DNA of 64,000 bases from Spirochaetia bacterium (GCA_963666985.2 CAXXIA010000002.1:1728001-1792000), one strand, 5' to 3'. Positions 48,900 to 64,000 are shown, counted from the first letter of the stretch. Made by a program: numbers and translations. Notes: generated from the sequence alone by a model not told the origin.

Positions 48900-48951
48900 T
48901 TAAAGGTCTTTAATCCGACTTCGTCTTTCATCCTGTATTATCTTATTTTGG

Positions 48952-49073
48952 GATTATTTCCTTATCACGAATAATAGTGGGTCTTTTGGCCCATTTCTTC
49001 CGATTAATTCCTTATTACGAACAAATTGAAGCACTTTGATGAAAGCCGCTTCCGATTAATTCCTTAAAGCGAA
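48952..49073. repeat. Three 20-bp direct repeats GATTAWTTCCTTAWHRCGAA
   Basis: Copies at 48952-48971, 49002-49021 and 49054-49073 (spacing 50 and 52 bp). Confidence 0.8.
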
Positions 49074-49132
49074 TTCGCATTATATCTTTATAGCTGTATG
49101 AAGCTTGATAATCCTTCATTATTAATTTTTTA

Positions 49133-49966
49133 TCACGAATTCGTATCATCCAACGGGGATCTGACTTGCTTCAAGATTTCATCAGTCATATGCGTATACA
49201 TCATTGTTGTTTTCAGGTTTGAATGGCCCAACTGGCTTTGAATAACCCGAACGTCTGTTCCTCGTTCCAATAGATGTGTGGCAAAAGAATGCCTTAATGT
49301 ATGACAGGAAGCTTTTTTTCTTATCCCTACGTGTCCTTTGGCCTTTTCGAAAGCGGCCTGTACTGATCTAATTTGATATCTTCGTCCGCTTCTGGTTGTA
49401 AAAAGCGGGTCCTTTCCGTTTCTTTCTCCGATGATTGAGGATAATTCAGGGATTAATGTATGTGGGAGAACGACATAACGATCCTTTGCTCCCTTTCCAC
49501 GCTTAACATGAATCCGTCCATATTCTAAATCAAGATCACCAATATTAAGAGCAACTAATTCACCGACCCGCAGACCTGATCCGTATAATAGTGCAAGCAT
49601 GAGCCGATGCTTCCTGTTGTTAACAGCGTCCAGTAGTTTTACAACTTCTGTTGGGGTTAAAACGGCCGGTAAGGATCTAGATCGCTTTCTTCGAAGAGAA
49701 AAAACTTCTAGCGGCATCCTTAAGTAATCATGATAAAAGAATTTAAGTGCAGCAAATGCCATTTCACGACTTGCCTCTTTATCTTCAAAAGACTCAAGAA
49801 AATACCGAACTTTTTCTTCTCTCCCTAAATTCCGTCGAGATATTGTAAACTCAAGATAACGGGACAACATTTGTGTATAAGCCTTAATTGTCCGCTCAGA
49901 ATAGCCCCTAATCACAAGTTCTCTTTTATAGTTGTTGATAAGTGATTCCTTGGATATGATCTTCAT
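49133..49966 (-). CDS. Tyrosine recombinase, putative cassette integrase (atypical: no IntI-specific insertion)
   Basis: GLRVGE, GKGAKDR, HTLRHSFATHLL, LGH, TMMYTH; N-terminal RGYSERTIKAY. Confidence 0.92.
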   Translation of the reverse strand: MKIISKESLINNYKRELVIRGYSERTIKAYTQMLSRYLEFTISRRNLGREEKVRYFLESFEDKEASREMAFAALKFFYHDYLRMPLEVFSLRRKRSRSLPAVLTPTEVVKLLDAVNNRKHRLMLALLYGSGLRVGELVALNIGDLDLEYGRIHVKRGKGAKDRYVVLPHTLIPELSSIIGERNGKDPLFTTRSGRRYQIRSVQAAFEKAKGHVGIRKKASCHTLRHSFATHLLERGTDVRVIQSQLGHSNLKTTMMYTHMTDEILKQVRSPLDDTNS

Positions 49967-49968
49967 AT

Positions 49969-50060
49969 GCGTTATAACGCTTTGTTAGCTCATTTTTCTT
50001 GATAAGAGACTAATTAAAAGATGATTAATGTATCGAGTTAGCATCTATGATGAGTTATAA
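49969..50060 (+). other. attI-like site; core GTTATAA at 50054-50060
   Basis: GTTATAAGCCATTTT is the reverse complement of the end of cassette 1 (51201-51215), and no attC precedes it; GAGTTA is repeated at 50035 and 50052. Confidence 0.75.
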
Positions 50061-50268
50061 GCCATTTTTCTGTATAGATTTATATGTAACAAATAAGAAT
50101 AACAAATAGCGCCAGATGGATTATTCGCAAAAGGAGAACGCGCGATAGCTATAAGGCGGTCCTTGAAGTATACTAAGTATACAGAAATTGCTTCTCTTCA
50201 CACTTCATTTGGCATTTACTCTCTTCTGAGTTGAGGAGATTACGATTTTGAACAAAGGAGGAGTGAAA

Positions 50269-51162
50269 ATGAGGATCGGGACGTTCAATGTAGAGAATCT
50301 ATTTGCGAGGTATAGATTTAACAGCAACTTTGATCCGATTAATAGCGATGGATTTTCAATAAATAATCTTGCTTTTAGCATTAACGATGAAACTGCAAAA
50401 CAAATAACCGCAAAGGCAATACGAGAAGTAGATGCTGATATCTTAGCATTACAGGAAGTTGATAATCTAAAAGTTCTTGATCGATTTGTTTCAAGCTATC
50501 TTGCAAAAGAAAAGTATAAGCATCGGATATTGATTGATGCATTTGATCCAAGAAATATCGATGTTGCACTCATTTCTAGATATCCAATTAAGAATGTAAA
50601 AACTTATAGGTCTGAAAGAAATAGATCAAATACTGCGAGTCTTTTCTCAAGAGATTGTCTTGAGGTTGTGATTGATGCTGAAGGAAAAGAATTGACGGTA
50701 TATGTTAATCATTTCAAATCAATGTTAGGTGGTCGTGATAATACTTTTACTAGGAGAAAAGAACAAGTTGAAAAAGTTGCTGAAATTATAAAGGAAGCAT
50801 GGCAGATAAAGAACTACGAAGGCAACTATGCAGTAGTCGGTGATTTTAATGATTATTTAGAAGGCCGGACCTCGCTGACTGATTTGATTACACATCCAGG
50901 ATTGAAGAATGTCAGTGAACGTATTTTAGAATCAGAAAGATGGACTCACTTTTGGGCCGGTGGCAATGAATATAGACAATTAGATTTCATACTACTATCC
51001 CCTCAGTTGGCCGAAATAAATAATAATGCTCCAGACATAATGAGAATGGGGCTTCCTTATCGAGCCGAAAAATATTCTGGAGATCGGTTTGATTTCGTTG
51101 GAGAAAACACTCCAAAGGCGTCTGATCATTGTCCTATTGTCATGGATATAGAATTAGTTTAG
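50269..51162 (+). CDS. Cassette 1: endonuclease/exonuclease/phosphatase family protein
   Basis: TFNVENLF, LQEV, NHFKS, GDFND, LDFIL, SDHCP; SD GGAGG. Confidence 0.9.
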   Translation: MRIGTFNVENLFARYRFNSNFDPINSDGFSINNLAFSINDETAKQITAKAIREVDADILALQEVDNLKVLDRFVSSYLAKEKYKHRILIDAFDPRNIDVALISRYPIKNVKTYRSERNRSNTASLFSRDCLEVVIDAEGKELTVYVNHFKSMLGGRDNTFTRRKEQVEKVAEIIKEAWQIKNYEGNYAVVGDFNDYLEGRTSLTDLITHPGLKNVSERILESERWTHFWAGGNEYRQLDFILLSPQLAEINNNAPDIMRMGLPYRAEKYSGDRFDFVGENTPKASDHCPIVMDIELV

Positions 51163-51208
51163 ATCGTAAAAGGAATTAGGATAGGTAATACTACTCAGAC
51201 AAAATGGC

Positions 51209-51426
51209 TTATAACAGCTGTTGATGCGCTCCGGCCGCTAAAAGTGTTTAGCGGCCTCCGGGGCTTCGCCCAAATTTCGTTTTGGCATGGCGTCTTGCAG
51301 ATGCAGATCCAGAAGTGATGTGATACAGTCAAAGGCGAACATGGTGTTGCTGTAGAAGAGCAAGAGCACATGCCAACCGGCTTTCAGCCGGACACGAAAC
51401 GTTCGCATAACAGCGGGCCGTTAATT
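51209..51426 (+). repeat. attC-like site 1 (218 bp, type A)
   Basis: TTATAAC-AGCTGTTGATGCG...CGCATAACAGCGGGCC-GTTAATT. Confidence 0.9.
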
Positions 51427-51468
51427 GCAATATCGAGGACTCCGTTTTATAGAAAGGAGTTGAATGAC

Positions 51469-52203
51469 GTGAAAAACAAAATCTTGATCGCTTCAATAAT
51501 AGCAGTTCTATGTTTCCCTTTTGTGATCTATCTAACTAGATTTCCTGGACTATACTCTGCTAACTCGGTGGAATGGGGAATCTTCGGAACGTTTATTGGT
51601 GGACTACTATCATCAATTTTCGCTGGTTTGAGTTTTATTGTAGTCTTACTTGTATATTGGCGCTCAAATGAGGATAGAAAGAATCGAGAGTCGCGCGAAA
51701 CAGTTCTTAAACTGCTGGAAGAGCTAAGTAATAGATATAAGAAAATTGTGATTAGAATTGAAGATACTGCTCAGATCGGAGAAATGGTATTTTCCTATTT
51801 TAATAGTAGTGCTTTTCAGCTTTATAAATTGTACCAAGACTATCTTAAAAACAAAGAAAATGAAAACCTTAAGGGACAGGTTAAGGCGCAAGCCTTACAG
51901 ATGGTCTTCTCAATCAATACAATACGCGAGTATCTACGATTTGTTGTTCTTACTTATCGATACATTGTGAATAAGTCAATTGAGAAAGAATTTCTTTCAA
52001 TACTATCAGCAAGACTTACAGAACAAGAGATGATAGCTCTTTCTATTTTGTTGTATGACGAAATTGAAGCTGATGACAATTTGTTTAGCTATTTAAAGAA
52101 TATGAAATACGGACCAATCGAAGGCTATGCTGCAATCGGAAGAAGTCTTACAGATGCCTTAAAGCTGAATTCTCCGGAACTACCATCAAATTTGAGTTTA
52201 TGA
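51469..52203 (+). CDS. Cassette 2: membrane protein resembling putative abortive-infection (putAbiC-like) proteins
   Basis: Two TMs with WGIFGTFIGG; C-terminal ILSARLTEQE; GTG start after AAGGAG. Confidence 0.55.
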   Translation: MKNKILIASIIAVLCFPFVIYLTRFPGLYSANSVEWGIFGTFIGGLLSSIFAGLSFIVVLLVYWRSNEDRKNRESRETVLKLLEELSNRYKKIVIRIEDTAQIGEMVFSYFNSSAFQLYKLYQDYLKNKENENLKGQVKAQALQMVFSINTIREYLRFVVLTYRYIVNKSIEKEFLSILSARLTEQEMIALSILLYDEIEADDNLFSYLKNMKYGPIEGYAAIGRSLTDALKLNSPELPSNLSL

Positions 52204-52268
52204 TTAGGAATTATTGATTTACATGGAGAAGCGAGAATAATTGCTGGTTAGAAATGAAACGATACTGC

Positions 52269-52476
52269 AATTAACAGCTGTTGATGCGCTCCGGCCGCTA
52301 AAAGTGTTTAGCGGCCTCCGGGGCTTCGCCCAAATTTGCCTCTGTCATAGATTTTGCGAATGTCTGGCACTGTGGTAAGATGAGTTGCGGTTAGCGGTTG
52401 AGGTTGTGAAGAATCGCAAAATCTCCGCCAGTCGCTACGCGAACGGCAAACTTCGCATACCAGCGGACCGTTATTT
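52269..52476 (+). repeat. attC-like site 2 (208 bp, type B)
   Basis: AATTAAC-AGCTGTTGATGCG...CGCATACCAGCGGACC-GTTATTT. Confidence 0.9.
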
Positions 52477-52530
52477 GCAAGAATGAATGACGATTTCTCC
52501 TCGCCCATCCATGGGCTCGGTGGTTAGAAG

Positions 52531-53760
52531 ATGTCAAAATATAAGAAACGAGACAAATACCAGCAGCTATATGAGTTTTTAAAAGCAAAAGAAAGCAGAT
52601 CCGAGTCATTCACTGTTGAAGAAATAATAACCGCGACAGGTTATCAAGAAGGATCCGTAAAGGCATATATTCGAAACAAGCTCAATAATGTTTATCTATT
52701 CTTAATAGATGATAGTCACTATCAAGTTTCAGGAATTGCATCAAAGACACCTGATGATTTTGAATCGATTATGTCGCAAAAAAGCGATTTGGTTGTGTCA
52801 GACTCAGAAAGCCTATTTACAAGCCTTAGGGATCGTAGTCTTCAAGCGTTTTATACTGCAATATCTGTATATAACAATCCCTTGCATGAATATAGGATAG
52901 AATCCTTTTGTATTCTTTTATCAAATGCATGGGAACTTTTACTCAAGGCTAGAATTGTTCAACTGGAAGGTGAAGATAAAATATACAAATCAAAAGGGAA
53001 GACAATTTCGTTAACAGAAGCCTATCGTAAAGTCTTTCCACGTTCATCTGATCCTATTCACAAAAACTTAGAAACACTTACCGAGATTCGAGATTCAGCA
53101 GTACATCTACTTATTCCGGATATTCAACATTCTTTATCTCGTATATTTCAAGCTAGCATTTTTAATTTTCTTTCAAAGGTAAGAGAATACAAATATCCAA
53201 ATAAGTACCATAGCGATTTACCAGGTCTCTTATCTTTTGTTACAGATAAACAAGACGTTCCTGAAAATGTAATACGTCTAAAGTATGGAACCTATGCAAG
53301 TGGACTAATAAAAGAATTTATTGAAAAGAATACCTCACGCGAATCCGAAGTTTCCGATATGCGTTATTCAATACCAATCGACTACAAGGTAGTTCTGACA
53401 AAAAGTGAAAAGGAAGGAGATTTATCTATCCGTATAGATAAGGATGGAGAACCCGCCATACTGGTAGAAAAACCCAAGGATGTTAATAAAACGCATCCCT
53501 ATCTTCAGAAAAATGTAATAGAAGCCGTGAATCAAGGTCTCGATGATGTCGGTCGGTCTCAATACCATCTCAACCGATATTCGTTTCGTGGAGCTCTCGA
53601 AGTTGAAAAAGTTAGGAGAACACAATCCAATAAATTCTATCATTTATTAGAAAATCCGGAAGTTCATAAGTACTCACAAGCATTTATAGATCTTCTTCTC
53701 CACAAACTTTCAAACAGTGATAGTTACCTACAGTTGTGTAAAAAAGCTTTGAAAAAATAG
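52531..53760 (+). CDS. Cassette 3: DUF3644-like (HEPN-type) protein
   Basis: AISVYNNP..RIESFCILLSNAWELLLKA; Rx4H motif RDSAVH. Confidence 0.75.
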   Translation: MSKYKKRDKYQQLYEFLKAKESRSESFTVEEIITATGYQEGSVKAYIRNKLNNVYLFLIDDSHYQVSGIASKTPDDFESIMSQKSDLVVSDSESLFTSLRDRSLQAFYTAISVYNNPLHEYRIESFCILLSNAWELLLKARIVQLEGEDKIYKSKGKTISLTEAYRKVFPRSSDPIHKNLETLTEIRDSAVHLLIPDIQHSLSRIFQASIFNFLSKVREYKYPNKYHSDLPGLLSFVTDKQDVPENVIRLKYGTYASGLIKEFIEKNTSRESEVSDMRYSIPIDYKVVLTKSEKEGDLSIRIDKDGEPAILVEKPKDVNKTHPYLQKNVIEAVNQGLDDVGRSQYHLNRYSFRGALEVEKVRRTQSNKFYHLLENPEVHKYSQAFIDLLLHKLSNSDSYLQLCKKALKK

Positions 53761-53821
53761 AAGTGGCCTGAAAGTACATCCTTGTACTTTCAGGGAGACT
53801 TATCCATCTCGTCATTCCTGC

Positions 53822-54039
53822 AAATAACAGCTGTTGATGCGCTTCGAATACATTTGCAGGCAAATGTATTCTCCGGGCCTTCGGCCAAATTTCGTTTTGG
53901 CATGGCATCTTGCAGATGCGTTTTCGAAAGTGATGTGATACAGTCAAAGGAGAACATGGCATTGCGTTAGAAGGGCAAGAGCGCATGCCAACCGGCTTCG
54001 CCGGACACGAAACGTTCGCATAACAGCGGGCCGTTTGGC
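53822..54039 (+). repeat. attC-like site 3 (218 bp, type A, variant first hairpin)
   Basis: AAATAAC-AGCTG...CGCATAACAGCGGGCC-GTTTGGC. Confidence 0.9.
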
Positions 54040-54096
54040 GAAATCTGTTTTAGAAAAATATTTTTTTGCCTCACCTTCCATGGTTCGGCTTTGTTC

Positions 54097-54381
54097 TCAC
54101 CTGTAGGCGCTACTTCGGGGTTCGAGAGAAATAATACTGACAATTCTAACGGCGTCATCGATTACATAGAAAAGTCTATAGTTACCAATTCGATACCGCC
54201 ACGTTTCTGGTTTCCAGTCTTTCAACTTTTTGATGTTTTTTCCGAAATAGGGGTTTTTGCGTAATTGGTCGTAGACCATGCCTGAAATCTTTCTGTATTG
54301 TGATGAACTTCCATTCATTCGTAGCTTTTTTAGATCTTTAAGAAATTGATCCGTTTCAAAAATTTTAAATCGTTCAGACAA
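54097..54381 (-). CDS. Cassette 4: RelE/ParE family toxin
   Basis: F.KDLKKL..NPY..KKLK..WRYRIGNYRLFY..R..AYR. Confidence 0.9.
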   Translation of the reverse strand: MSERFKIFETDQFLKDLKKLRMNGSSSQYRKISGMVYDQLRKNPYFGKNIKKLKDWKPETWRYRIGNYRLFYVIDDAVRIVSIISLEPRSSAYR

Positions 54382-54613
54382 ATCGACCTCTACCGTTCTT
54401 AGCGTCTTTGGTTCCCTGCTTCATTCGTTTTAAAAGGCTTTCATCAGAGAGGATGCTTTCCATTTCGAAATCGTCGGCATATTCAACCTCTTCGATGTAT
54501 CTCATTGTTGCAGTCTCGATAAAATTTGAAATCGAACGATTCTCAGCATCGGCATGGACTTTTAAGGAATCGTAGAGTTCTTCATCAATTCGTAGAGAAA
54601 CAGTTTTGGTCAT
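54374..54613 (-). CDS. Cassette 4: ribbon-helix-helix antitoxin
   Basis: KTVSLRIDEE..NRSISNFI; acidic; overlaps the toxin start. Confidence 0.85.
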   Translation of the reverse strand: MTKTVSLRIDEELYDSLKVHADAENRSISNFIETATMRYIEEVEYADDFEMESILSDESLLKRMKQGTKDAKNGRGRFV

Positions 54614-54627
54614 ATCATTATCCCCTC

Positions 54628-54684
54628 TATGAATACATTGTATTCATATGTGTTTAAATTAGTTCATAGCGTTATTGAAGTCAA
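54628..54684 (-). promoter_or_regulatory. TA promoter (TTGACT-17-TAATTT) and operator palindrome
   Basis: -35 at 54679-54684; perfect IR TATGAATACA-T-TGTATTCATA at 54628-54648. Confidence 0.7.
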
Positions 54685-54755
54685 TAGGGCGATTTTAGAG
54701 GTCTCCCAAGTACATCCTTGTACTTGGAAGAGTGGTAAAACACCAAACAGACTTC

Positions 54756-55027
54756 GCCAAACAGCTGTTGATGCGCGGCGGCCGCTAATGGGATTAGCGG
54801 CCTTGGGCCGAGCGATGGAAAACCAAGAGCTTTTAAATTTCTGTTGAAGGGAAAAATCAAATTGGTTCGGCTCGGCCAAATTTCGCTTTGGCCATGGTTC
54901 TTGCAGATGCGTTTCTAAAAGTGGTGTGATAAGCTGAAGAGCGAACGGGCTTTCTGTTAAAGTGCAAGAACGCATGCCAACCGGCTTCGCCGGACGCGAA
55001 ACTTCGCATACCAGCGGAACGTTTAAC
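54756..55027 (+). repeat. attC-like site 4 (272 bp, type A with expanded second arm)
   Basis: GCCAAAC-AGCTG...CGCATACCAGCGGAAC-GTTTAAC. Confidence 0.88.
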
Positions 55028-55155
55028 GAAAAAATCAGAAGGCCTTTTCCATGCCGCCTTTCTTGGTGCCATGAATAGGAATATTCAATTTCCTAAAAGA
55101 ATTAATGGTAATAATGTATAGTTAGTAATCCTGTAGTGATAACGAAGAGTAGAAA

Positions 55156-55860
55156 ATGGAAAACATAATCAAAATACTCGGTGAGCATCCAACTGCTGTT
55201 ATTGCAGATGCTGCTTTTAAGATTGGAGCAACAGTTCGTCTTCTTCCTTCAAATCTATACTCTCTTAAGCCAGATGCACGATTAATCGGTAAAGTTACAA
55301 CCGTTAAATGCAATAACGATTTGGTCTCTATTCTCGAGGGGCTTATGCGTGCAGAGAGTGGAGATGTTTTACTAATCGACAATAATGGTTTCTCAGGGGC
55401 AGGTTGTATCGGAGATGTCATCGTTTCGGAAGCTGTTCGTAAGAAAATCTCTGGGATTGTTGTCTATGGATCCATTAGAGATAGCCAGCAAATCTCTACG
55501 ATGGAAATTTCTGTGTTCTGTACTGGAAAATGTTCTGTTGGGCCATTGAAGCTACCTGGGCAGCAGTCGAAAAATGGTCTTGTTAACGTAGTCTTGGAAA
55601 TAGAGGGAACTTCTATAAAACCTGGAGATATTCTTATTGGCGATGTTGATGGTGTAATTGTTGTAGAAACCGATCGCCTTGATGAAATTATTAGCAAAGC
55701 AGAAGAAATTGAACATAAAGAAGAGACTTTAATGAAAAGAATCGAGTCAGGAGAAAGTCTTACAGACATATTTGGGGTTAAGAAGTTCTTAGAGAAAAGA
55801 GAAGGGGATCCAGAGTATTTATTCAATTCTCATTTGGCAGAACAGAATGAAACGATTTGA
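55156..55860 (+). CDS. Cassette 5: RraA family/HMG aldolase-like protein
   Basis: T..IADA, GDVLLID, GCIGD, GSIRDS, PGDILIGDVDGVIVV. Confidence 0.88.
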   Translation: MENIIKILGEHPTAVIADAAFKIGATVRLLPSNLYSLKPDARLIGKVTTVKCNNDLVSILEGLMRAESGDVLLIDNNGFSGAGCIGDVIVSEAVRKKISGIVVYGSIRDSQQISTMEISVFCTGKCSVGPLKLPGQQSKNGLVNVVLEIEGTSIKPGDILIGDVDGVIVVETDRLDEIISKAEEIEHKEETLMKRIESGESLTDIFGVKKFLEKREGDPEYLFNSHLAEQNETI

Positions 55861-55931
55861 TTCAGTGAAAGGTGAGCCAATAAGTGATTAGATAGAGGTA
55901 TTTTCTATTTGGCATTTTTAGGGATTTCTTC

Positions 55932-56208
55932 GTTAAACAGCTGTTGATGCGCGTCGGCCGCTAAAGGTGTTTAGCGGCCTTGGGCCGAGCGATGGGTATT
56001 GGTTAAGTTTTATTATTTTTGAAGAAGAAGAGAAAATCAGATTGAATCGGCTCGGCCAAATTTCGCTTTGTCATGGCTCTTGCAGATGCGTTTCCGAAAG
56101 TGATGTGATACCATCAAAGGCGAACAATGAATTGCTGTAGAAGAGCAAGAGCGCATGCCAACCGGCTTCGCCGGCCGCGAAACTTCGCATACCAGCGGGC
56201 CGTTAAAG
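55932..56208 (+). repeat. attC-like site 5 (277 bp, type A with expanded second arm)
   Basis: GTTAAAC-AGCTG...CGCATACCAGCGGGCC-GTTAAAG. Confidence 0.88.
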
Positions 56209-57047
56209 GAAATTCGGACGACGGAATAAAAAAGGTCTCTTTTTTGAGGGTTTTTTTCTGTGGCAGCCTCATTCCCTTCATTTGAACAAGTAACAAAAAC
56301 AGAATCCCTTTGAGTGTTCAGATTTTTTTAACAGGCCTTCCTTCTCTTTGAACGAAACAGGTCGTTTTCATACGGCTTTCTCCTCACCCCCCTCGCCTTT
56401 GAGATCATCTTCAAGAAAGAAACCAAAAGCATCGGAATAAAACTCGCTTCGGGATCAGAAGCACTTAGTGATAAGGCGGTCGGTTCGGGAGAACTTGTGT
56501 CGTGAAGGTTTATGGTTTTTAACGATTATGGGAATCGCTCATGAGAAAATCCTTATCCGTTGATGGCTATCGCTTCGGGAAATGAGGCGCTTCCGGTTTG
56601 ATCGGTTCGCGAGAAAAGGGGTGGTAGCCTGAGAAGAATGAAGGGATGGAGATGAGAAGAATGGAGATTGTTTTCTCCGTAGTTTTGCCTTTGAGAATAA
56701 GGCTGAATGCTTTAAGAGAATACCGGTGTAGAAGGAGAAGACGAACATTCGGATTTACAGAATCCGTCCTGAGAGAAAGAGGTCGGGAAAGGCGAATTGC
56801 ATCGGATGAAGGCCTGAGTAAAGTGATGAGGCGATGAAAGGGAGAATAGGGGTCAGTACGAGAGAATGGATAGAAATTCCGTTAAATGAGTAAAAAGCGG
56901 AAGAGGGAAGTCTGTAAAAGGATGAATGAAGAAAAGATGAGAAGGAGAAGGGCAAGAAGAATCGAAACAAAGGGTCCGGCAAAACGGCGAGGAGGGGTGA
57001 GGAGAAGGAGAGGTCTTTATAGATGCGTCGTCCGAACTTCCTTTAAC
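56202..57047. other. Cassette 6: apparently non-coding cassette
   Basis: Ends are complementary over 21/22 nt; only unconvincing ORFs of 75 aa or less. Confidence 0.7.
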
Positions 57048-57248
57048 AGCTGTTGATGCGCTTCGGCCGCTAAAGGTGTTTAGCGGCCTGCGGGGCTTCG
57101 CCCAAATTTGCCTCTGTCATAGATTTTGCTTAAGTCTGTCGCTATGGTAAGATGAGTTGTAGTTAGCGGTTGATGTTGTGAAGATTCGCAAAATCTCCGC
57201 CAGTCGCTACGCGAACGGCAAACTTCGCATACCAGCGGGCCGTTATGT
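57041..57248 (+). repeat. attC-like site 6 (208 bp, type B)
   Basis: CTTTAAC-AGCTG...CGCATACCAGCGGGCC-GTTATGT. Confidence 0.9.
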
Positions 57249-57298
57249 GCTTTTTCGTTTTTCCAGTTAATAACATTAATTGCCATAAGGAGGGAGAA

Positions 57299-57751
57299 AT
57301 GGGCATCAATTATCAATTAAAAGCAGAAAAAGGCAAAATCGAAGATGAATTAAATTCCGCAATTAACAGGCTTATTTCTGGCTGCGAAAAGCTTGATATG
57401 GCTTTAGCTTTCGAAATCTTCTCAGATTCATCTGAGTTCTTGATGATGGGAACGGATGGAAGCCTTTGTGATTATCAGACTTACTTGAAAAACAATATCG
57501 ACTATTTATCCGGTTGTGAAAGTTTTAAGTTGATAACGTTTGATCGAAAAATACGAATCATAAACAGTGAGGTAGCCATCTTTTCATGGGCTTATGGGGT
57601 TGAGGCAAAATTAAGAACGGGAGATATTGATATTATTGATAATGCAGGAGCTTCTTTTGTCTTCCGAAAAATAGAGAATACATGGAAGGTTGTATATTAT
57701 CATGAGTCATCAGTACCTCCGAAAAGAAACTCTCCACCAAGAGAATCATGA
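57299..57751 (+). CDS. Cassette 7a: NTF2/SnoaL-like protein
   Basis: C-terminal SFVFRK..WKVVYYHES; SD GGAGG before ATG 57299. Confidence 0.75.
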   Translation: MGINYQLKAEKGKIEDELNSAINRLISGCEKLDMALAFEIFSDSSEFLMMGTDGSLCDYQTYLKNNIDYLSGCESFKLITFDRKIRIINSEVAIFSWAYGVEAKLRTGDIDIIDNAGASFVFRKIENTWKVVYYHESSVPPKRNSPPRES

Positions 57752-57845
57752 CGATTGAAATCCAAGTGTAAATAAGGGATTACACAGAACGTCGCGCAAG
57801 TATCGCTTTCTGTTGCTGTTTATAGTTATGTCGGAATCAGAATAT

Positions 57846-58334
57846 ATGGAAAATAAAATAGTAATAGATAAAAAAATCCAGCCGGGCGATTTGGGCTCTA
57901 TAGTGGAATTGCATGGCAAATATTACAGCAAGCATTTTGGCTATAACATAACCTTTGAACCATATGTTGCTTTACCTCTTGCGAAGTTTATACTTCGGGC
58001 CAGTGAGAATGAACAGATTTGGATAGTTCGACAAAACGGAATCGTTCGGGGGAGTATCGCTATTGCGAAGAAGAAAGCAAAAACTGCGCAGTTGAGATGG
58101 TTTATCCTTGATGGAAGTCTCCAAGGAAAAGGCATTGGAAATCAACTAATGAGATTCTCTATTGATTTTGCAAGAGAAAAAGGATTTTACAAGCTGATTC
58201 TCTGGACGGTAAGGGATCTAAAAAGTGCGATTCATCTGTACGAAAAGAATCTTTTTTTGCTTAAGAAAGAAGTTTCCCACAAGATTTGGGGGGTGGAATT
58301 GACGGAACAACTCTATGAATTGAAGTTGAAATAG
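57846..58334 (+). CDS. Cassette 7b: GNAT acetyltransferase
   Basis: AQLRWF..QGKGIG, LWTV..AIHLYEK. Confidence 0.88.
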   Translation: MENKIVIDKKIQPGDLGSIVELHGKYYSKHFGYNITFEPYVALPLAKFILRASENEQIWIVRQNGIVRGSIAIAKKKAKTAQLRWFILDGSLQGKGIGNQLMRFSIDFAREKGFYKLILWTVRDLKSAIHLYEKNLFLLKKEVSHKIWGVELTEQLYELKLK

Positions 58335-58400
58335 GGTTAATTCCGAATACTCTGTTTAAGAAGATGAACTCTCAATAAAGATAGATATGAGGGAAAAAGC

Positions 58401-58609
58401 ACATAACAGCTGTTGATGCGCTCCGGCCGCTAAATAGTGTTTAGCGGCCTTCGGGGCTTCGCCCAAATTTGCCTCTGTCACAGATTTTGCGAATGTCTGG
58501 TGTTGTGGTAAGATGATTTGCAGTTGACGGTTAATGTTGTGAAGAATCGCAAAATCTCTGCCAGTCGCTGCGCGAACGGCAAACTTCGCATACCAGCGGG
58601 CCGTTAAGT
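58401..58609 (+). repeat. attC-like site 7 (209 bp, type B)
   Basis: ACATAAC-AGCTG...CGCATACCAGCGGGCC-GTTAAGT. Confidence 0.9.
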
Positions 58610-58841
58610 GTATTATTGGAGGCATTTTGAAGAAATTATGGATTCTGTTTCTTTTTCCATTTCTTCTGGGATGTGTGACTCGTGCAGATGAAAAGTATAA
58701 AGGAACTATCTACGATCCTGGTATTGAGGAACCCATATCGTTGCATCCCTTTTACTTCTCACATGCACTTGCAGAGGCAATTTGGAATTCCCAGCTTTTG
58801 ATAGACACTGCTAAACTCAAAATGAGGAAGGAGTGTACATC

Positions 58842-59129
58842 ATGGGAAGTCCGCGATATTCGGACGAATTCAAGGCAGAAGCAGTCGGCCAGGTTGTTGA
58901 GCGGGGCTACTCCATCAAGGAAGTCTCTGAGCGTATAGGAGTCTCAACCCATAGCCTCTATAAGTGGCTGAAGGCCGATTCTCGAAATCCAAAAGCACCA
59001 GAATCGGCAAAAGCAAATAAGGAGCTTGAAGTCGAGAATGCCAGGCTGAAAGCAGAGCTGCGGCGGGTGCAGGAAGAGCGAGATATCTTAAAAAAAGCCG
59101 CGGCATACTTCGCGAGTCAGTCCGAGTAA
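58842..59129 (+). CDS. IS3-family transposase OrfA
   Basis: RYSDEFKAEAV..HTH..EERDILKKAAAYFA. Confidence 0.92.
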   Translation: MGSPRYSDEFKAEAVGQVVERGYSIKEVSERIGVSTHSLYKWLKADSRNPKAPESAKANKELEVENARLKAELRRVQEERDILKKAAAYFASQSE

Positions 59130-59167
59130 GATATGCCTTCATCAAAAACTACAGGGCTGAATTCAGA

Positions 59168-59986
59168 GTGAAGACTATGTGCCGGGTTCTCGATGTCAAT
59201 CGAAGCGGATTCTATGCATGGTTGAGAAAACCTCAATCAGAGAGAAAGATTGAAGACATTCGGTTGTTGAAGAAGATTCGCCACTTCTACGAAGAAAGCG
59301 ATCAGGTCTACGGAAGTCCACGAATCCATGAGGATTTGATGGAAGACGGAGAATCCTGCAGCGTCCATCGAGTAGCCAGAATCATGCGAGAGCATGGTAT
59401 CAGGGCGATGGTCGGCTTCAAGATGCGTCGATTCAAGTATGGAAAACCGTCCCAGGCTGCCCCGAACCATCTCCAGCAGGACTTTAATGTAGAAGAACCC
59501 GATACTGCGTGGACAACGGATATTACCTATATTCGAACTCATGAAGGTTGGCTGTATCTCGCAGTTGTCATGGATCTTTATTCCAGGAGAATCATCGGCT
59601 GGTCCATGCAGAACACGCTTCATCGTGATCTGGTTATCCAGGCCTTACTGACAGCTGTTTGGAAGAGACGCCCGAAAAACAAAGTCCTTATCCATTCCGA
59701 TCAGGGCGGCCAATTTGACAGCGGTGACTGGATTAGATTCTGTCGTGACAACGGACTGAAGAGAAGTATGAGCCGTCGTGGAAACTGCTGGGACAATGCA
59801 GCCATGGAATCATTCTTTGGTAGTTTGAAGAAGGAACGGATTCGCCGGAAGACATATCGAACAAGGGATGAAGCACGGTCTGATGTGTTCGATTATATTG
59901 AAGCATTTTACAACCGGAAGCGTCGCCACAAGCATCTTGGCGGGATCTCTCCGGTTGAATTTGAAAAGGGTTCTATTGCAAGCTAG
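59168..59986 (+). CDS. IS3-family transposase OrfB (DDE)
   Basis: YGSPRI, WTTDITYI, HSDQG, DNAAMESFF. Confidence 0.94.
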   Translation: MKTMCRVLDVNRSGFYAWLRKPQSERKIEDIRLLKKIRHFYEESDQVYGSPRIHEDLMEDGESCSVHRVARIMREHGIRAMVGFKMRRFKYGKPSQAAPNHLQQDFNVEEPDTAWTTDITYIRTHEGWLYLAVVMDLYSRRIIGWSMQNTLHRDLVIQALLTAVWKRRPKNKVLIHSDQGGQFDSGDWIRFCRDNGLKRSMSRRGNCWDNAAMESFFGSLKKERIRRKTYRTRDEARSDVFDYIEAFYNRKRRHKHLGGISPVEFEKGSIAS

Positions 59987-60335
59987 AGGTGTCTATAGAA
60001 GTCTGGGAATTCCAATTCATCTTAATTTCAATTTTCCAGATGCGTTTACTACGAAAGATATTGCTGAGTTGTATGGAAGACTCTACTATCACGCGCAGAA
60101 TGTTGAGGGTGTAACTATCCAAATAGATTCATACCCAGAAAAGCGAAGTCTTTTTATTAATATGAAACCAATTGTAATAGAAAACTATAGGCAATTTGGT
60201 AAAAGAGATAAGCTTGAATCACTTGGATACTTCTTTTGGTTCAATGTTGAGCAAGATCGCACACTAAAAGGAAAATATGTACCAGTGAACCACCCCGGCT
60301 TTACCGGAGGCACAATTACTTGAGAGGATTGTGTC

Positions 60336-60656
60336 ATGGGAAAGCAAACAAGGTACCCCAAGGAAGTCCGGGAACAATCTGTCCGGATGGTGTTTGAGAA
60401 GCAGAAGGACAGCGAATCTCAGTGGTCGGCGATTTGTTCAATATCCGCTAAGATCGGCTGTACACCCGAAACACTCCGGAAATGGGTTCGGCAGGCAGAA
60501 ATCGATGAAGGGCAGCGGGATGGTCTAACCAGTGAAGAGCGTAAGCGTCTTAAAGAGCTGGAAAAGGAGAATCGAGAACTTCGTACTGCCAACGAAATTC
60601 TTCGAAAGGCCTCAGCGTATTTTGCCCAGGCGGAGCTCGACCGCCGAAAGAACTGA
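60336..60656 (+). CDS. IS3-family transposase OrfA
   Basis: KIGCTPETLRKWVRQAE..ANEILRKASAYFAQAELDR. Confidence 0.93.
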   Translation: MGKQTRYPKEVREQSVRMVFEKQKDSESQWSAICSISAKIGCTPETLRKWVRQAEIDEGQRDGLTSEERKRLKELEKENRELRTANEILRKASAYFAQAELDRRKN

Positions 60657-61567
60657 TGGTCGGTTTTATCAATGAGAACCGGGAAGAATATGGAGTCGAG
60701 CCTATCTGCAAATCACTGCCGATTGCTCCGTCGACCTATCATCTACAAAAAGCAAGAGAAGCTGATCCTGAACTCGAACCTGATCGAACACGTCGAGACC
60801 GGTTTCTTAAAAATGAGATTCAGGAGATATGGGATGAGAACCGTAGAGTCTACGGCGCCAGGAAAGTCTGGAAGGTTCTTAGAAATGAGAAGCATCTCCA
60901 TGTAGCCAGGTGTACCGTCGAACGTCTTATGCGTTCTATGGGTCTCAGAGGCGTCATTCGGGGCAAGGGAACCAAGACCACCTTCCCGTCACCGAAAGAT
61001 GAAAGACCCGAGGATCTGGTTAACAGAGATTTCACAGCTTCCAAGCCGAATCGGCTTTGGGTTGCGGATTTCACCTACGTTTCCACCTGGCAGGGCTTCG
61101 TCTATGTTGCCTTCATCATTGATGTCTTCTCCCGGATGATCGTCGGTTGGCGAGCTAGCCGGTCGATGAAAACCGACTTTACTCTTGATGCGCTCAATCA
61201 GGCGCTTTGGGCCAGGGAAGTAGTCGACGGTCTGATTCATCACAGTGATCGTGGAAGGCAGTATCTTTCGTTTCGATATTCGGATCGATTGACAGAGGCC
61301 GGTATCGAGCCTTCGGTTGGGAGCAAAGGAGACTCGTACGATAACGCAATGGCTGAGACTATCAACGGTCTCTACAAAGCCGAAGTCATCCACCGGAGGA
61401 GCTCATGGCAGAGAATAGAACAGGTTGAATTGGAAACCCTGGACTGGGTGGACTGGTACAACAACCGCCGAATCATGGAGCCGCTTGGAGATATCCCCCC
61501 GGCGAAGTTTGAATCGATGTATTATGAACAGGAAGAATGTTCGGCAGTAGCTGCCGGACTCAACTAA
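60656..61567 (+). CDS. IS3-family transposase OrfB (DDE)
   Basis: YGARKVW, WVADFTYV, HHSDRG, DNAMAETING. Confidence 0.94.
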   Translation: MVGFINENREEYGVEPICKSLPIAPSTYHLQKAREADPELEPDRTRRDRFLKNEIQEIWDENRRVYGARKVWKVLRNEKHLHVARCTVERLMRSMGLRGVIRGKGTKTTFPSPKDERPEDLVNRDFTASKPNRLWVADFTYVSTWQGFVYVAFIIDVFSRMIVGWRASRSMKTDFTLDALNQALWAREVVDGLIHHSDRGRQYLSFRYSDRLTEAGIEPSVGSKGDSYDNAMAETINGLYKAEVIHRRSSWQRIEQVELETLDWVDWYNNRRIMEPLGDIPPAKFESMYYEQEECSAVAAGLN

Positions 61568-62067
61568 AACAGCCTCCGGGAATCCCGGTGTGGTTCACAG
61601 AGATGTTTGCCCGAACAAATGTGATGACGGCAAATACTTCCTGCTATACGTATAAGTATTTAGAATCAGGTTCACTGTATCGGTATCGGTCTAATGTTGA
61701 TTATACGATTACTGAGTGGAATGACGATATGTTGAATGCTGAGAATTGCATATTTGATGGAATCCCCAATAATAATGAACTTGCTCTTAAGTATATAGCA
61801 ACCGCAATTAAAAGAGCTGAGGAGATACCGGAGTTACAAAGAGGAAGATATCTGTATATTGTTTTGTACGGTAAACTTCTAGAATGTGAGTATAATATTT
61901 TGGTTGGACAATTCGATGAAGCTAGAGAATTACTAGAAGAATCTATTCTTACATTTGAGGAAAATAGTGAAATTATACGCTATAAGGAAGTTATAAAAAA
62001 CTGTATTGAACACGCTGAGATCGTGTTATTGCTAACAGAATTTCTAATGCCATATTATCAATAATAC

Positions 62068-62279
62068 ACTTAACAGCTGTTGATGCGCTCCGGCCGCTAA
62101 AGGTGTTTAGCGGCCTTCGGGGCTCCGCCCAAATTTCGTTTTGGCGATGGCTCTTGCAGATGCGTTTTTAGAAGTTGTGTGATAAGTTGAAGAGCGAACA
62201 GGCTTTCTGCTAAAAGCAAGAGCACATGCCAACCGGCTACGCCGGACACGAAACTTCGCATACCAGCGGGCCGTTAGGT
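62068..62279 (+). repeat. attC-like site 8 (212 bp, type A)
   Basis: ACTTAAC-AGCTG...CGCATACCAGCGGGCC-GTTAGGT. Confidence 0.9.
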
Positions 62280-62319
62280 GATTTGCAAATGAGATACAAT
62301 TAGATCAAAGGAGAGCGCC

Positions 62320-63456
62320 TTGGGCCCTGTAGTACTTCTGGATAAGTCTACCTACCAATGCCTCAGTTCTGATGAACTACTTTGTCTAGAAAGATACTAT
62401 TTCCTCAATTTGCCTCCAATACTCCTTTACGAAATAATTACAGATCTATCGAAAAAGTCTGGAAGAGATTCAGAAGAAGTTACTTCACGGCTTGCTGCAA
62501 AATTCACTCAAATGAGTAGTTACGCTAACGATGAGTATCGGATAGTACTCCGTTTATCACTTCTTGGAAGGCCGGTGCCAATGACACGTCAGGTTCTCAT
62601 TGCCGGTGGAGAGAAAATCAAAGACGAAGAAGGGAAGGTCGGGATTTTTCTAGATGAACCTCCTGAATTTAAGGCATTACGAGAATGGGAGAATAAAAAC
62701 TTTTCAGAGTTTGATAGAATCTTTGCAACAGCATTCAGAAAGTATAAAGATAGCTTCGATTTCGAATTGATTACGAAGAAAGATTCAGACTTCAAAAAAA
62801 TATGGAGCGAAGTCAATTCACTGGAAGATGCCCATGATAGCGCTGTTTTACATATTGATAACAAAGAGAATACAGCTCAGATGCTTGAATGGGCTATGTC
62901 GAGTATCAATCTCTCAAGCTTAGAGAAAAGTGCGGTTCGCAAACTGTGGAGTGTTAAAGGAAAACCGAATCTTTCTGACTTCTCACCTTATGCAAGATTT
63001 TGCATGATTGCGTCATTAACAGCGTTCATAGGAATCAGTAAAGGACTATTAGGCTCTAGGTCTTCAAACATGATAGATCTCGAATACCTTTATTATTTAC
63101 CTTTTTGCTCCATTTTTTCTTCAAATGACAAATTTCAACTACAACTAGCACCATTATTGATTGGAGATGATCAATACATCGTTTCGGGTGATGTTCTCAA
63201 AGATGATTTAGCAAAAATAATCACATATTTCTCAGGATTCACGAAAGAAGATCATGTTGCTTATCGAAAGCATAGAGGCAGCCACCCTCCTGAAATCGCA
63301 GACTCGTTTACTTTGAGTGTATGGGAGACGCTATGCTCGCCAGTAGATCCAGAGGCAGAAGAAAGGTTACAGAACACCCCACATGACGAGATTCTGAAGA
63401 AGATAAAGCCAATACTGGAAGCAATTAAGAAGCAAGAACAGAATCGGGGAAACTAG
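62320..63456 (+). CDS. Cassette 9: hypothetical protein, possible PIN-like nuclease
   Basis: N-terminal VLLDKS; later D..YL.YLPFC.IFSSND; SD AAGGAG, TTG start. Confidence 0.6.
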   Translation: MGPVVLLDKSTYQCLSSDELLCLERYYFLNLPPILLYEIITDLSKKSGRDSEEVTSRLAAKFTQMSSYANDEYRIVLRLSLLGRPVPMTRQVLIAGGEKIKDEEGKVGIFLDEPPEFKALREWENKNFSEFDRIFATAFRKYKDSFDFELITKKDSDFKKIWSEVNSLEDAHDSAVLHIDNKENTAQMLEWAMSSINLSSLEKSAVRKLWSVKGKPNLSDFSPYARFCMIASLTAFIGISKGLLGSRSSNMIDLEYLYYLPFCSIFSSNDKFQLQLAPLLIGDDQYIVSGDVLKDDLAKIITYFSGFTKEDHVAYRKHRGSHPPEIADSFTLSVWETLCSPVDPEAEERLQNTPHDEILKKIKPILEAIKKQEQNRGN

Positions 63457-63473
63457 TTAAATACGAGCAAATC

Positions 63474-63682
63474 ACCTAACAGCTGTTGATGCGCTCCGGC
63501 GTCAACTTGCGTTGCCGCCTCCGGGGCTTCGCCCAAATTTGCCTCTGTCATAGATTTTGCGGAAGGCTGGCGGCTGTGATAGGATGGCTTTCAGTAATCG
63601 GCCGATGTTGTTCTGTCTGGCAAAATCTACACCAGTCGCCTTCGGCGAACGGCAAACTTCGCATAACAGCAGAACGTTTAAT
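63474..63682 (+). repeat. attC-like site 9 (209 bp, type B, variant first hairpin)
   Basis: ACCTAAC-AGCTG...CGCATAACAGCAGAAC-GTTTAAT. Confidence 0.88.
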
Positions 63683-63806
63683 GAAAAAAAACAGAAGGCC
63701 CCTCAACAGTTCGGTATCCTGTTTCGCTAATAGGTTTCATTTAGTAGCTGAGAAATTAAGCAATTATGCAAAAAGATATATTTGTTAAAAAATTGCCGGA
63801 TACTAC

Positions 63807-64000
63807 CTATGCAGATTCTCTTCTCACTCTACGTTTTTCCTTTCTTAGACGTTTTCGAAATTTTCGAATTCTAATTTTTGTGTATTGCTGAAGATTCTCC
63901 CATTCAACGCGAGTTGATATTATCCCTTGTCGCTCGAACCGAAACTTAACTCCTGATAGAATTGAATCAGTTTTAACGAGAAATCCATCCCTTGCATCTT
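63807..64000 (-). CDS. Cassette 10: 3' end of a possible reverse-oriented ORF
   Basis: Open frame from the window edge (..DARDGFLVK..RKRLRKEKRRVRRESA) to TAG at 63807-63809. Confidence 0.4.
   Translation of the reverse strand, partial: DARDGFLVKTDSILSGVKFRFERQGIISTRVEWENLQQYTKIRIRKFRKRLRKEKRRVRRESA

Follow-up and report, generated by a model that had tools for sequence, protein, structure and literature searches.

The window, i.e. the whole stretch of 64,000 nucleotides from a Spirochaetia bacterium that was analysed, harbors a gene for a tyrosine recombinase of 277 amino acids and, in divergent orientation and from position 50055 onward, an array of cassettes (Table 1). Nine complete sites lie inside the window, which gives nine full cassettes and the beginning of a tenth. 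This agrees with the original prediction of an integron layout with nine palindromic AAC..GTT sites and at least ten cassettes. The prediction placed the boundary of the system at position 64000, whereas the array actually continues for some 142 kb beyond the window's end, to about C2:1935900. On the contig it spans ca. 157 kb (C2:1779213-1935900) with 83 complete paired sites and six orphan ends. The GC content of this island is 0.40 vs 0.517 for the remainder of the contig, so the island may have arrived as a block assembled elsewhere.

Table 1. Features of the array head, with positions counted from the first nucleotide of the window.
Feature	Coordinates	Strand	Site (AAC to GTT)	Content
Array-head tyrosine recombinase	49133-49966	-		277 aa, intact ORF; PF00589 (E 5.5e-41), also PF13495
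Recombinase-to-array region	49967-50056	+		attI-like insertion point at GTT 50054-50056
Core-like motif	49972-49989			TTATAAC-GCTTT-GTTAGC, between recombinase gene and array
Cassette 1	50055-51420	+	51213-51422	endonuclease/exonuclease/phosphatase-family gene 50248-51162; exact duplicate of cassette 75
Cassette 2	51421-52470	+	52273-52472	membrane-type protein, no family assigned
Cassette 3	52471-54033	+	53826-54035	DUF3644 + EC042_2821-like nuclease-domain protein 52531-53760
Cassette 4	54034-55021	+	54760-55023 (264 nt)	
Cassette 4, toxin gene	54097-54381	-		ParE-type toxin
Cassette 4, antitoxin gene	54374-54613	-		RHH antitoxin
Cassette 5	55022-56202	+	55936-56204 (269 nt)	RraA-like protein 55156-55860
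Cassette 6	56203-57242	+	57045-57244	without convincing ORF
Cassette 7	57243-58603	+	58405-58605	SnoaL-like 57245-57751, GNAT acetyltransferase 57813-58334
Cassette 8	58604-62273	+	62072-62275	split by two IS3-family insertion sequences
Cassette 8, first IS3-family element	~58783-60014			
Cassette 8, second IS3-family element	~60284-61597			ALIL frameshift pseudoknot 60614-60730
Cassette 9	62274-63676	+	63478-63678	378-aa protein 62320-63456, no known family
Cassette 10, start only	63677-64000	+		array continues outside the window

The protein encoded by cassette 3 matches the PADLOC candidate defence family PDC-S19, and cassette 6 is one of five related cassettes with 95-97% similarity to one another. 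Insertion sequences are present in many cassettes of the array. A simple sigma-70 consensus scan of the array head (49850-50300) for a cassette promoter (Pc) gave 0 sites, against a mean of 2.0 in shuffled sequence.

The sites, which are imperfect palindromes, extend from AAC to GTT over 191-269 nt, well above the length of ordinary attC sites, and the nine repeats of the window begin with AACAGCTGTTGATGCGC and finish with ...CGCATAMCAGCGGGCCGTT. An Rfam scan of 48500-64000 with E values up to 1 gave no attC match. The sites are predicted to fold with a branched middle and, between the boxes, a one-sided bulge. Of the 82 adjacent pairs, 76 show reverse complementarity (at least 6 of 8 bases) between the sequence that follows one GTT and the sequence that precedes the next AAC. 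This exceeds chance, since controls gave 9/83 (same site) and 12/81 (site i vs site i+2). Cassette 1 starts with GTTATAAGCCAT, and the bases that precede the AAC of site 1 are its reverse complement. When the bottom strand was folded together with the start of the cassette to which the site belongs, an arrangement corresponding to the excised circle, end-to-end closure was predicted in 77 of the 83 sites, as compared to only 23 of 83 in the array form.

The attI-like insertion point is located 88 nt upstream of the recombinase start codon. Cassette 1, which occupies it, is 100% identical across 1369 nt to cassette 75, at a distance of 135 kb. The identity starts at 50054 and runs exactly from GTT to GTT at both ends; the left flanks differ (attI vs attC 74) and the right flanks diverge directly past the GTT. 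Such an identical copy, bounded by GTT on both sides, points to a recent site-specific insertion. BLAST comparison revealed three more identical whole-cassette duplicates: c26/c65 (1076/1076), c31/c45 (1029/1029) and c50/c71 (705/705). The c31/c45 block is bounded by GTT at both ends, the c26/c65 block ends one base past the GTT on the right and 24 nt into the neighbouring site on the left, and the c50/c71 block begins within the preceding site and ends within the cassette's own site.

The recombinase belongs to a family of 21 protein clusters (233-312 amino acids, at least 59% identity) in which the catalytic residues are conserved; R133, K158, H222 and R225 are the same in all 21 members, H248 and Y257 in nearly all. 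As stated in the original prediction, the protein has 277 residues and 53 residues separate KDRYVVLP from HTLRH, a spacing shared by 20 of 20 close relatives. The extra insertion that the prediction ascribed to integron integrases in this interval was also found, with 94-95 residues in 12 of 12 canonical IntI proteins from fetched loci; in most XerC/D-like proteins the interval is 59-63 residues. The IntI-specific extra domain of ca. 35-40 residues near patch III is thus absent from the 277-aa recombinase. Its alignment to the TIGR02249 profile falls into two pieces (profile positions 2-177 and 240-314) with some 62 positions skipped (ca. 178-239), and residues 179-200 (22 aa) replace residues 181-245 (65 aa) of VchIntIA (2A3V).

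The profile scores of the protein are not those of an ordinary IntI: it reaches 220.2 bits with TIGR02249 (cut-off 265) and 149.6 with NF011946 (cut-off 435). It passes the cut-off of the XerA model NF040815 (224.6 vs 220 bits), but this model is not discriminating as the XerC-like protein of the host passes too (223.1 bits). The term Xer-like used in the prediction fits length and architecture of the enzyme but not its nearest solved relative, which both by sequence and by fold is IntI4 (2A3V), the best fold match of the predicted model (mean pLDDT 82.5). A careful tree built from 53 proteins unites the 15 IntI proteins with the insertion, six of them from spirochaetes, in one clade (support 100/100, recovered in all 200 bootstrap trees). 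The query falls outside this clade and joins spirochaete short enzymes at 99/94. The enzyme is best described as an insertion-less kin of IntI, not of XerC/D.

The original prediction of a distinct system implied that homologues of the short enzyme should be associated with similar arrays. Of 301 genomes of the class, 36 contain the attC 3′-end motif CTTCGCATA-N8-10-CGTTA, and in seven genomes other than the present one (G094, G069, G033, G022, G017, G179 and G242) it occurs on the same contig as a short enzyme, within 13 kb and in divergent layout. The junction complementarity described above was found in six of seven relatives' arrays tested, namely L115 (7/10), L118 (10/15), L030 (6/6), L029 (3/4), L033 (3/5) and L040 (4/6), and was 0/5 in L120. 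Most other short homologues fetched had no array found by the detectors used.

Judged from sequence, the system is genuine and integron-like, and its recombinase, whose activity we infer, is not an IntI. The DNA itself shows the layout, the exact junctions between cassettes, covariation that requires base pairing, a fresh copy of a whole cassette at attI and, across genomes, the association of site type with enzyme clade. The predicted distinct cassette-shuffling system is supported by profile score, tree, the lack of a canonical IntI match elsewhere in the genome and array linkage. We consider it likely that the window covers the head of an integron-like element, sedentary and chromosomal, which comprises at least 83 cassettes in ca. 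157 kb and whose cognate recombinase is the 277-aa insertion-less enzyme of a spirochaete lineage, a close relative of IntI outside the canonical IntI clade.

In the proposed mechanism, the enzyme would bind attC-like sites folded back as single strands. The R box of the folded site would consist of the conserved TAAC/GTTA and ca. seven cassette-specific pairs, and the L box of GTT(G)ATGCG paired with CGCAT-AAC, which leaves one extrahelical base; a one-sided bulge of 4-5 nt would separate the two boxes. After cutting by the enzyme at G/TT, exchange between two attC sites would excise a cassette as a circle, and exchange between attC and attI would insert the circle at GTT 50054-50056, beside the recombinase gene. 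From its position and its co-distribution with the sites we infer that the exchange is catalysed by this enzyme alone; a single-stranded substrate and the choice of strand are likewise presumed.

The main alternative is an ordinary array, built and moved by a canonical IntI that is now lost, unassembled or acting in trans, with the short recombinase as a bystander or as a replacement with another role. The field regards the IntI extra domain as necessary for activity, as Messier and Roy reportedly found in 2001, and the literature treats it as essential and defining. According to the paper on 2A3V, canonical IntI is said to read the extrahelical base with the very domain that is absent here, and the retention of this base in the sites counts against the short enzyme as catalyst. 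The judgement of Cury et al. 2016 (PMC4889954) that domain-less recombinases close to attC sites do not qualify as IntI also counts against our preferred explanation. Moreover, canonical IntI scores over the cut-off in 97 of the 301 genomes of the class, same-genus genomes included, the GC content of the island is unlike that of the host, and the host genome (three contigs) is 93.1% complete, so a canonical intI could sit in the missing part or on a lost plasmid.

Against this alternative, a canonical IntI elsewhere in the genome, which would have undermined the original prediction, was found neither with the family profile nor with tblastn, and no remnant was detected. The TIGR02249 search of the genome gave eight matches, none over the cut-off, and tblastn with three spirochaete IntI sequences retrieved only the short gene, the two XerC/D-like genes and a further recombinase. 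The insertion point with its identical cassette copy lies immediately next to the start of the short gene. In the seven genomes with sites near a short enzyme, the canonical IntI genes are found on other contigs or megabases away (e.g. 3.13 Mb vs 5.01 Mb in G022 and 0.35 Mb vs 2.50 Mb in G069), and the site motif never occurs beside them. G017 has the same layout, yet its best TIGR02249 match is no better than E 4.4e-28. We regard a lost or distant canonical IntI as unlikely.

Rather more improbable is that the short enzyme moves cassettes as a classical Xer-type recombinase, acting on double-stranded sites with two strand exchanges, in which case the likeness to integrons would be one of layout only. 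Such a mode of action would fit an enzyme that is without the domain used by canonical IntI on folded sites and that passes the XerA cut-off, as well as the perfect duplex-type inverted repeat AAC-AGCT-GTT at the 5′ end of each site. However, cassette-specific bases covary in reverse-complementary fashion over distances from ca. 200 nt to several kb, and the L box shows two-sided compensatory changes (ATACG/CGTAT) in six sites, as compared to a one-sided change in two; shared descent may account for the six, which would then not be independent cases. Covariation from arm to arm and two-sided changes are explained by base pairing, not by protein binding to duplex arms. In addition, the asymmetry of the sites, i.e. 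one extrahelical base and the one-sided bulge, is kept in the predicted folds of nine out of nine window sites, and in integrons such asymmetry marks one strand. The least credible possibility is that array and gene are fossil remnants without present-day recombination, for which the insertion sequences in many cassettes and the leading-strand-template orientation (restricting excision according to PMC5371416) could be cited, but the gene is unbroken and encodes the full set of catalytic residues, and the whole-cassette duplicates, one of them at attI, are 100% identical.

The element that we propose, headed by an insertion-less recombinase, can be compared to several known systems. The archaeal and CPR XerA-type recombinases (NF040815; PDB 4A8E, 5HXY) are of similar length and have the same domain order without the insertion. 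XerA is a housekeeping dimer-resolution enzyme, unlike the gene described here, which lies in a low-GC island and is patchy (13 same-genus genomes yielded one match at E≤1e-30, and 5 yielded none at E≤1e-40), in a host with separate XerD-like and XerC-like genes elsewhere. Similar to the sedentary chromosomal integrons such as the Vibrio cholerae superintegron (VchIntIA/IntI4, 2A3V), the locus has a divergent integrase gene with an adjoining insertion point, a long array of cassettes that mostly share one orientation and look promoterless, with toxin-antitoxin cassettes and insertion sequences among them, and near-uniform imperfect palindromes with AAC...GTT cores and a G/TT crossover. Its attC bottom strands are the leading-strand template, as in 25 of 30 chromosomal integrons according to PMC5371416. 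The differences from the superintegron are the enzyme, which is without the extra domain of ca. 40 residues, scores below the TIGR02249 cut-off and falls outside the IntI clade, and the sites, with their greater length, branched middle and one-sided bulge.

The Treponema chromosomal integrons belong to the same phylum and also form chromosomal arrays with conserved attC sites, but their description (Wu et al. 2013, PMC3607928) gives them ordinary intI genes and attC sites 63-132 bp in length; unlike there, both systems occur in the present class, at different places within the same genomes. Insertion-less recombinases placed between IntI and Xer had fewer than three attC sites beside them in the survey of Cury et al. 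2016 (PMC4889954), vs 83 sites here. With no IntI-specific match nearby, the array would most likely be missed by a standard search or filed as a CALIN, an attC cluster without integron integrase (Cury et al. 2016, PMC4889954). Unlike a CALIN, it is headed by a specific conserved recombinase with an attI-like point beside it. Literature searches for such an integron-like system with an insertion-less recombinase found no description.

Integrons are defined by the IntI extra domain in IntegronFinder-type searches with the intI_Cterm profile. Probably a second kind of integron exists that standard searches have overlooked. If an insertion-less enzyme runs an array of 83 cassettes and has recently placed a cassette at attI, integrons are defined too narrowly, a cognate enzyme may exist for many of the arrays filed as CALIN, and phyla said to be integron-poor may hold integrons. 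The reading of a folded single strand by a tyrosine recombinase could then be studied in a smaller and simpler protein. A broader proposal, plausible though still tentative, is that the IntI extra domain is not required for folded-attC cassette recombination and was absent when it began. A broad group of ~270-aa recombinases, from Spirochaetota and at least two Patescibacteria (CPR) lineages (L033, L040), would head arrays with the shared motif AACTTCGCATA...CGTTA, and canonical IntI would be one derived branch that gained the insertion once. If so, integrons would be older, more widespread and mechanistically simpler than the current definition allows, which bears on the origin of integrons and on whether the array function or the insertion arose first.

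The GC content drops at about 48.9 kb of the window from 0.56-0.59 to 0.35-0.45, and a series of genes, mostly in plus orientation, follows on the plus strand from position 50055 onwards, interspersed with nine copies of a long repeat. The repeat starts with xxxxxxxTAAC-AGCT-GTTGATGCGC and ends with ...TTCGCATAMCAGCGGGCCGTT, with an AAC-to-GTT span of 200-269 nt in these nine copies. The array extends far past the window: the contig (C2, of which the window forms positions 1728001-1792000) contains 83 two-ended sites, as well as two orphan 5' ends and four orphan 3' ends. This enlarges the original prediction of an integron-like array headed by a 277-aa recombinase, which is borne out, from nine sites to 83 sites in an element of about 157-159 kb, with a GC content of 0.40 against 0.517 in the remaining contig. 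A motif that occurs three times just past the recombinase gene, on its 3' side, may mark the island boundary, since the GC step-down is located there. On C2 the cumulative GC skew is lowest near 1.68 Mb. The array is found about 100 kb to the right of this point, where the plus strand is leading; the attC bottom strands are therefore on the leading-strand template. This orientation was found in 25 of 30 sedentary chromosomal integrons and tied to large, stable arrays in PMC5371416.

Coordinates of features in and around the cassette array (window positions unless prefixed by C2, the contig)
Feature	Position	Strand	Remarks
TTCCTTATxACGAA, three copies	48958-49073		two within a 22-nt direct repeat (49000, 49052)
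Tyrosine recombinase gene, 277 aa	49133-49966	minus	PF00589 and N-terminal PF13495
Inverted core-like motif TTATAAC-GCTTT-GTTAGC	49972-49989		6 nt upstream of recombinase start codon
Putative attI-like insertion point (GTT)	50054-50056		88 nt upstream of recombinase start codon
Short-read contig of cassette 1	50054-51239
Cassette 3 protein	52531-53760		DUF3644 and EC042_2821-like nuclease domain
Cassette 6	56203-57242		longest ORF 75 aa
IS3-family element, first	58783-60014		100% identical copies in cassettes 54, 60 and 73
IS3-family element, second	60284-61597		100% identical copies in cassettes 55 and 79
Two-ended sites, 83	C2:1779213 to ~1935900		191-269 nt each
Mini-cassette copies	C2:1797754-1906035		237-239 nt each
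Cassette 75	C2:1913135-1914503		135 kb from cassette 1

Among the NCBIfam profiles, NF040815 (XerA / 'integron integrase') matches the recombinase with 224.6 bits at a cut-off of 220, and TIGR02249 (integron integrase) with 220.2 bits at a cut-off of 265, in two stretches that correspond to profile positions 2-177 and 240-314 in the genome search. The interval from KDRYVVLP to HTLRH comprises 53 residues in the query and all 20 close relatives, against 94-95 in all 12 canonical IntI proteins of the retrieved loci; most XerC/D-like proteins have 59-63. The best match of known structure is VchIntIA (2A3V), the IntI4 integrase of the Vibrio cholerae superintegron, both in sequence (160 bits) and in fold (E 2.7e-17). 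In the alignment to 2A3V, query residues 179-200 stand for IntI4 residues 181-245, and they are without a helix in the AlphaFold model (mean pLDDT 82.5). The query family consists of 21 clusters of 233-312 aa with 59-100% identity, and identity beyond the family is at most 46%. The catalytic residues R133, K158, H222 and R225 are invariant across these clusters, and H248 and Y257 nearly so. Under the current definition the query is not an IntI. None of the eight TIGR02249 matches in its own genome exceeds the cut-off, and tblastn searches of that genome with three spirochaete IntI sequences found only four places, namely the query gene, an adjacent pair of XerD-like and XerC-like genes, and a 275-aa recombinase. 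The genome is 93.1% complete, so the absence of a canonical IntI from it is not proven.

A quick tree of 76 proteins was followed by a careful IQ-TREE analysis of 53 selected proteins, from which many near-duplicates and fragments had been left out. In the latter the 15 insertion-bearing IntI proteins, six of them from the class of the window's organism and two from its genus, form a single clade with 100/100 support. The query family (100/99) is joined by the spirochaete short enzymes of loci L029 and L030 (95/81) and then by those of L031 and L035 (99/94), and short enzymes and IntI together are split from the XerC/D-like proteins at 100/100. This placement means that the query did not arise by a recent deletion in a spirochaete IntI. 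The expected lack of the IntI signature is thus confirmed by the 53-residue interval, by a TIGR02249 score under the cut-off and by a position outside the IntI clade, and in a tree with IntI and XerC/XerD-type proteins the query falls into a separate clade of short enzymes.

The cassettes are of integron type. Read as reverse complement, the eight bases after a site's GTT match the eight bases before the next AAC at six or more positions in 76 of the 82 adjacent pairs and at seven or more in 72; the controls gave 9/83 within the same site and 12/81 for site i against site i+2. The six non-complying pairs coincide with a missed intermediate site or a large cassette. This is the trace that would be expected of a circular cassette cut at G|TT within its own R box. 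Because the bases vary between cassettes, the complementarity amounts to covariation; base pairing is therefore demanded, and recognition of a fixed sequence by a protein cannot account for the junctions. The same rule predicts from site 1 that cassette 1 starts with GTTATAAGCCAT, a string present at position 50054, and we take its GTT as the putative attI-like insertion point. When the attI regions of three genomes were aligned, the only common element was ...GAT-N2-GTTA, placed similarly far from the gene in each, too little for defining an attI. The inverted core-like motif next to the start codon is of the AAC/GTT type seen in the sites; its role may be that of a binding site in autoregulation. 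A promoter scan found none.

DNA folding with each cassette's own start closed the bottom strand end to end in 77 of the 83 sites, against 23 of 83 with the start of the neighbour. The nine window sites share a fold in which the R box is followed by 4-5 unpaired bases on one arm only, the L box and a branched middle. The L box pairs GTT(G)ATGCG with CGCAT-AAC and leaves a single base unpaired directly after GTT. It is ATGCG/CGCAT in 73 sites and ATACG/CGTAT, changed on both sides, in six, which may share descent; a one-sided change occurs in only two. Ordinary attC sites have the order R''-spacer-L''...L'-spacer-R' with an extrahelical base. The array sites are alike in box order and in the position of this base, but differ in length, in the branched middle and in the one-sided bulge. 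IntegronFinder 2 by default allows attC sites of up to 200 nt. An Rfam search gave the ALIL pseudoknot of an insertion sequence as its sole match.

Duplicated cassettes point to recent movement. Cassette 1, which is located at attI, and the distant cassette 75 share 1369 nt at 100% identity, beginning with the G of the leading GTT and ending with the final T of the cassette's own site. On the left, attI-side sequence stands against the end of site 74, and on the right the sequences diverge directly past GTT. Such a pattern would be the expected product of a distal cassette copy inserted at attI, or the reverse. Three other whole-cassette pairs are identical by BLAST: 26/65 (1076/1076), where identity reaches 24 nt into the preceding site, 31/45 (1029/1029), where it is bounded cleanly by GTT, and 50/71 (705/705), where it begins within the preceding site and ends within the cassette's own site. 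The duplicates are scattered, outside any larger duplicated block. Two sequencing runs, X1 and X2, come from one sample, which may be the one from which the window was derived. Cassette 1 is covered in them by a short-read contig whose first base is precisely the G of the attI GTT. Its depth in X1 is 17.5 against 4.2 for the recombinase contig (about 4x), part of which is explained by the two genomic copies; the excess is a weak hint. The joints of the X1/X2 contigs lie in repeats and have sides of at most 33 letters, except for a go-back joint (63540 to 51293) in which one side measures 63 letters and other letters separate the two sides; excision or circles are not shown by these joints. In the array of a same-family genome (L115:7393-12286, genome G022), a unit of 2297 nt is present three times in tandem with 100% identity, which suggests a very recent cassette duplication there too.

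Beyond the own genome, the site has a conserved 3' end, AACTTCGCATA-N3-GCGG-N2-CGTTA. Searches for the site motif, canonical IntI and the short enzyme, all in one set of 301 genomes of the class, were read jointly, the counts being lower bounds among the matches listed. The exact pattern CTTCGCATA-N8-10-CGTTA was present in at least 36 genomes and 23 of 135 genera, with 33 matches in the own genome; canonical IntI above the cut-off was found in at least 97 genomes and the short enzyme (E<=1e-40 to the query) in at least 57. In at least seven genomes (G094, G069, G033, G022, G017, G179 and G242) the motif shares a contig with the short enzyme, at a distance of no more than 13 kb and in divergent layout. 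The association of homologues with similar arrays, earlier proposed as a check, is reflected in these genomes and in the junction hallmark, which was present in six of the seven loci tested. Among the matches listed, canonical IntI of motif-bearing genomes is located elsewhere than the motif, for example far away (3.13 vs 5.01 Mb in G022, 0.35 vs 2.50 Mb in G069, 1.05 vs 3.28 Mb in G179) or on other contigs (G033, G088, G062, G242). G069 and G094, both of the host's class, correspond in their coordinates to named Spirochaetota records, which places the host in the class of Marispirochaeta.

Junction hallmark in loci of relatives (7 bases, at most 1 mismatch; controls with shuffled partners)
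Locus	Source	Own-cassette match	Control mean
L115	G022	7/10	0.67
L118	G179	10/15	2.14
L030	a Marispirochaeta record	6/6	0.40
L029	Spirochaetaceae record	3/4	0.00
L033	Patescibacteria single-cell genome	3/5	0.00
L040	Komeilibacteria	4/6	0.40
L120	G242	0/5	0.25

In genomes G088, G062, G134, G250 and G015 the motif occurs, among the matches listed, 8-17 kb downstream of a longer, co-oriented relative (286-365 aa), and on G025:C10 it lies 0.5-5 kb downstream of another such relative, which is itself under the 1e-40 threshold and was taken from another search. Relatives of 355-365 aa are co-oriented with same-motif sites on G088:C4, G062:C9, G134:C1 and G250:C1 (sites 11-17 kb downstream) and on G025:C10. 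This arrangement looks like a second layout. In G253 the motif is 124 kb off. Some short enzymes of relatives carried the flag '1 TAG/TAA inside', which might make them pseudogenes; this was set aside for L030 (G069), where the open frame equals the match length and the extracted ORF has no internal stop, and for G033, G179 and G242 that reading is countered only by an open frame at least as long as the match.

Cassette-chain detectors did not detect an array beside most other short homologues among 80 loci, and many of these array-less homologues may be housekeeping Xer enzymes. The first detector was unspecific, with chains of eight even in the control part of the window, and the second overlooked the real array, since no more than five pairs are contiguous in the L-box stem. 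The stricter third detector found two or more linked cassettes in 0/60 control chunks and was insensitive, missing L029, L031 and L040. Scanning metagenomes with the 5'-terminal 17 nt of the site returned 120 loci with a single match each, 12 with a full site and none with a recombinase; the matches are mostly due to chance and the scan does not inform the linkage.

The cassette 3 protein matches the PADLOC candidate defence family PDC-S19 (E 5.5e-68), in keeping with the idea that chromosomal integrons store defence genes. Cassette 6 is without a convincing ORF or an Rfam match and has a strong skew of G over C; it belongs to a family with cassettes 33, 34, 49 and 68 (95-97% alike), and a partial copy is found in cassette 40. 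A mini-cassette is present as a whole in cassettes 13, 16, 30, 32, 62, 69 and 70 and once inside cassette 76, the copies being 93-99% alike. Several insertion sequences lie within cassettes, each in multiple identical copies, and one cassette holds two different elements of the IS3 family.

A full-text search of the openly available literature, judged by title and abstract, found no description of an integron recombinase that heads an array yet lacks the extra domain. Cury et al. 2016 (PMC4889954) examined this idea in complete genomes and reported 50 insertion-less recombinases near attC sites; the four that fell between IntI and Xer had fewer than three attC sites, and the conclusion was that such proteins 'are not IntI'. 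Ghaly et al. 2021 and 2022 (PMC8352920, PMC9668308) selected IntI via the extra domain. The earlier reading of a cassette system run by a non-IntI enzyme is supported by every available computational test. From its place at the head of the array we infer that the 277-aa enzyme would catalyze cassette exchange. The system is an integron in its layout and in the logic of its sites, and its recombinase belongs outside the IntI clade.
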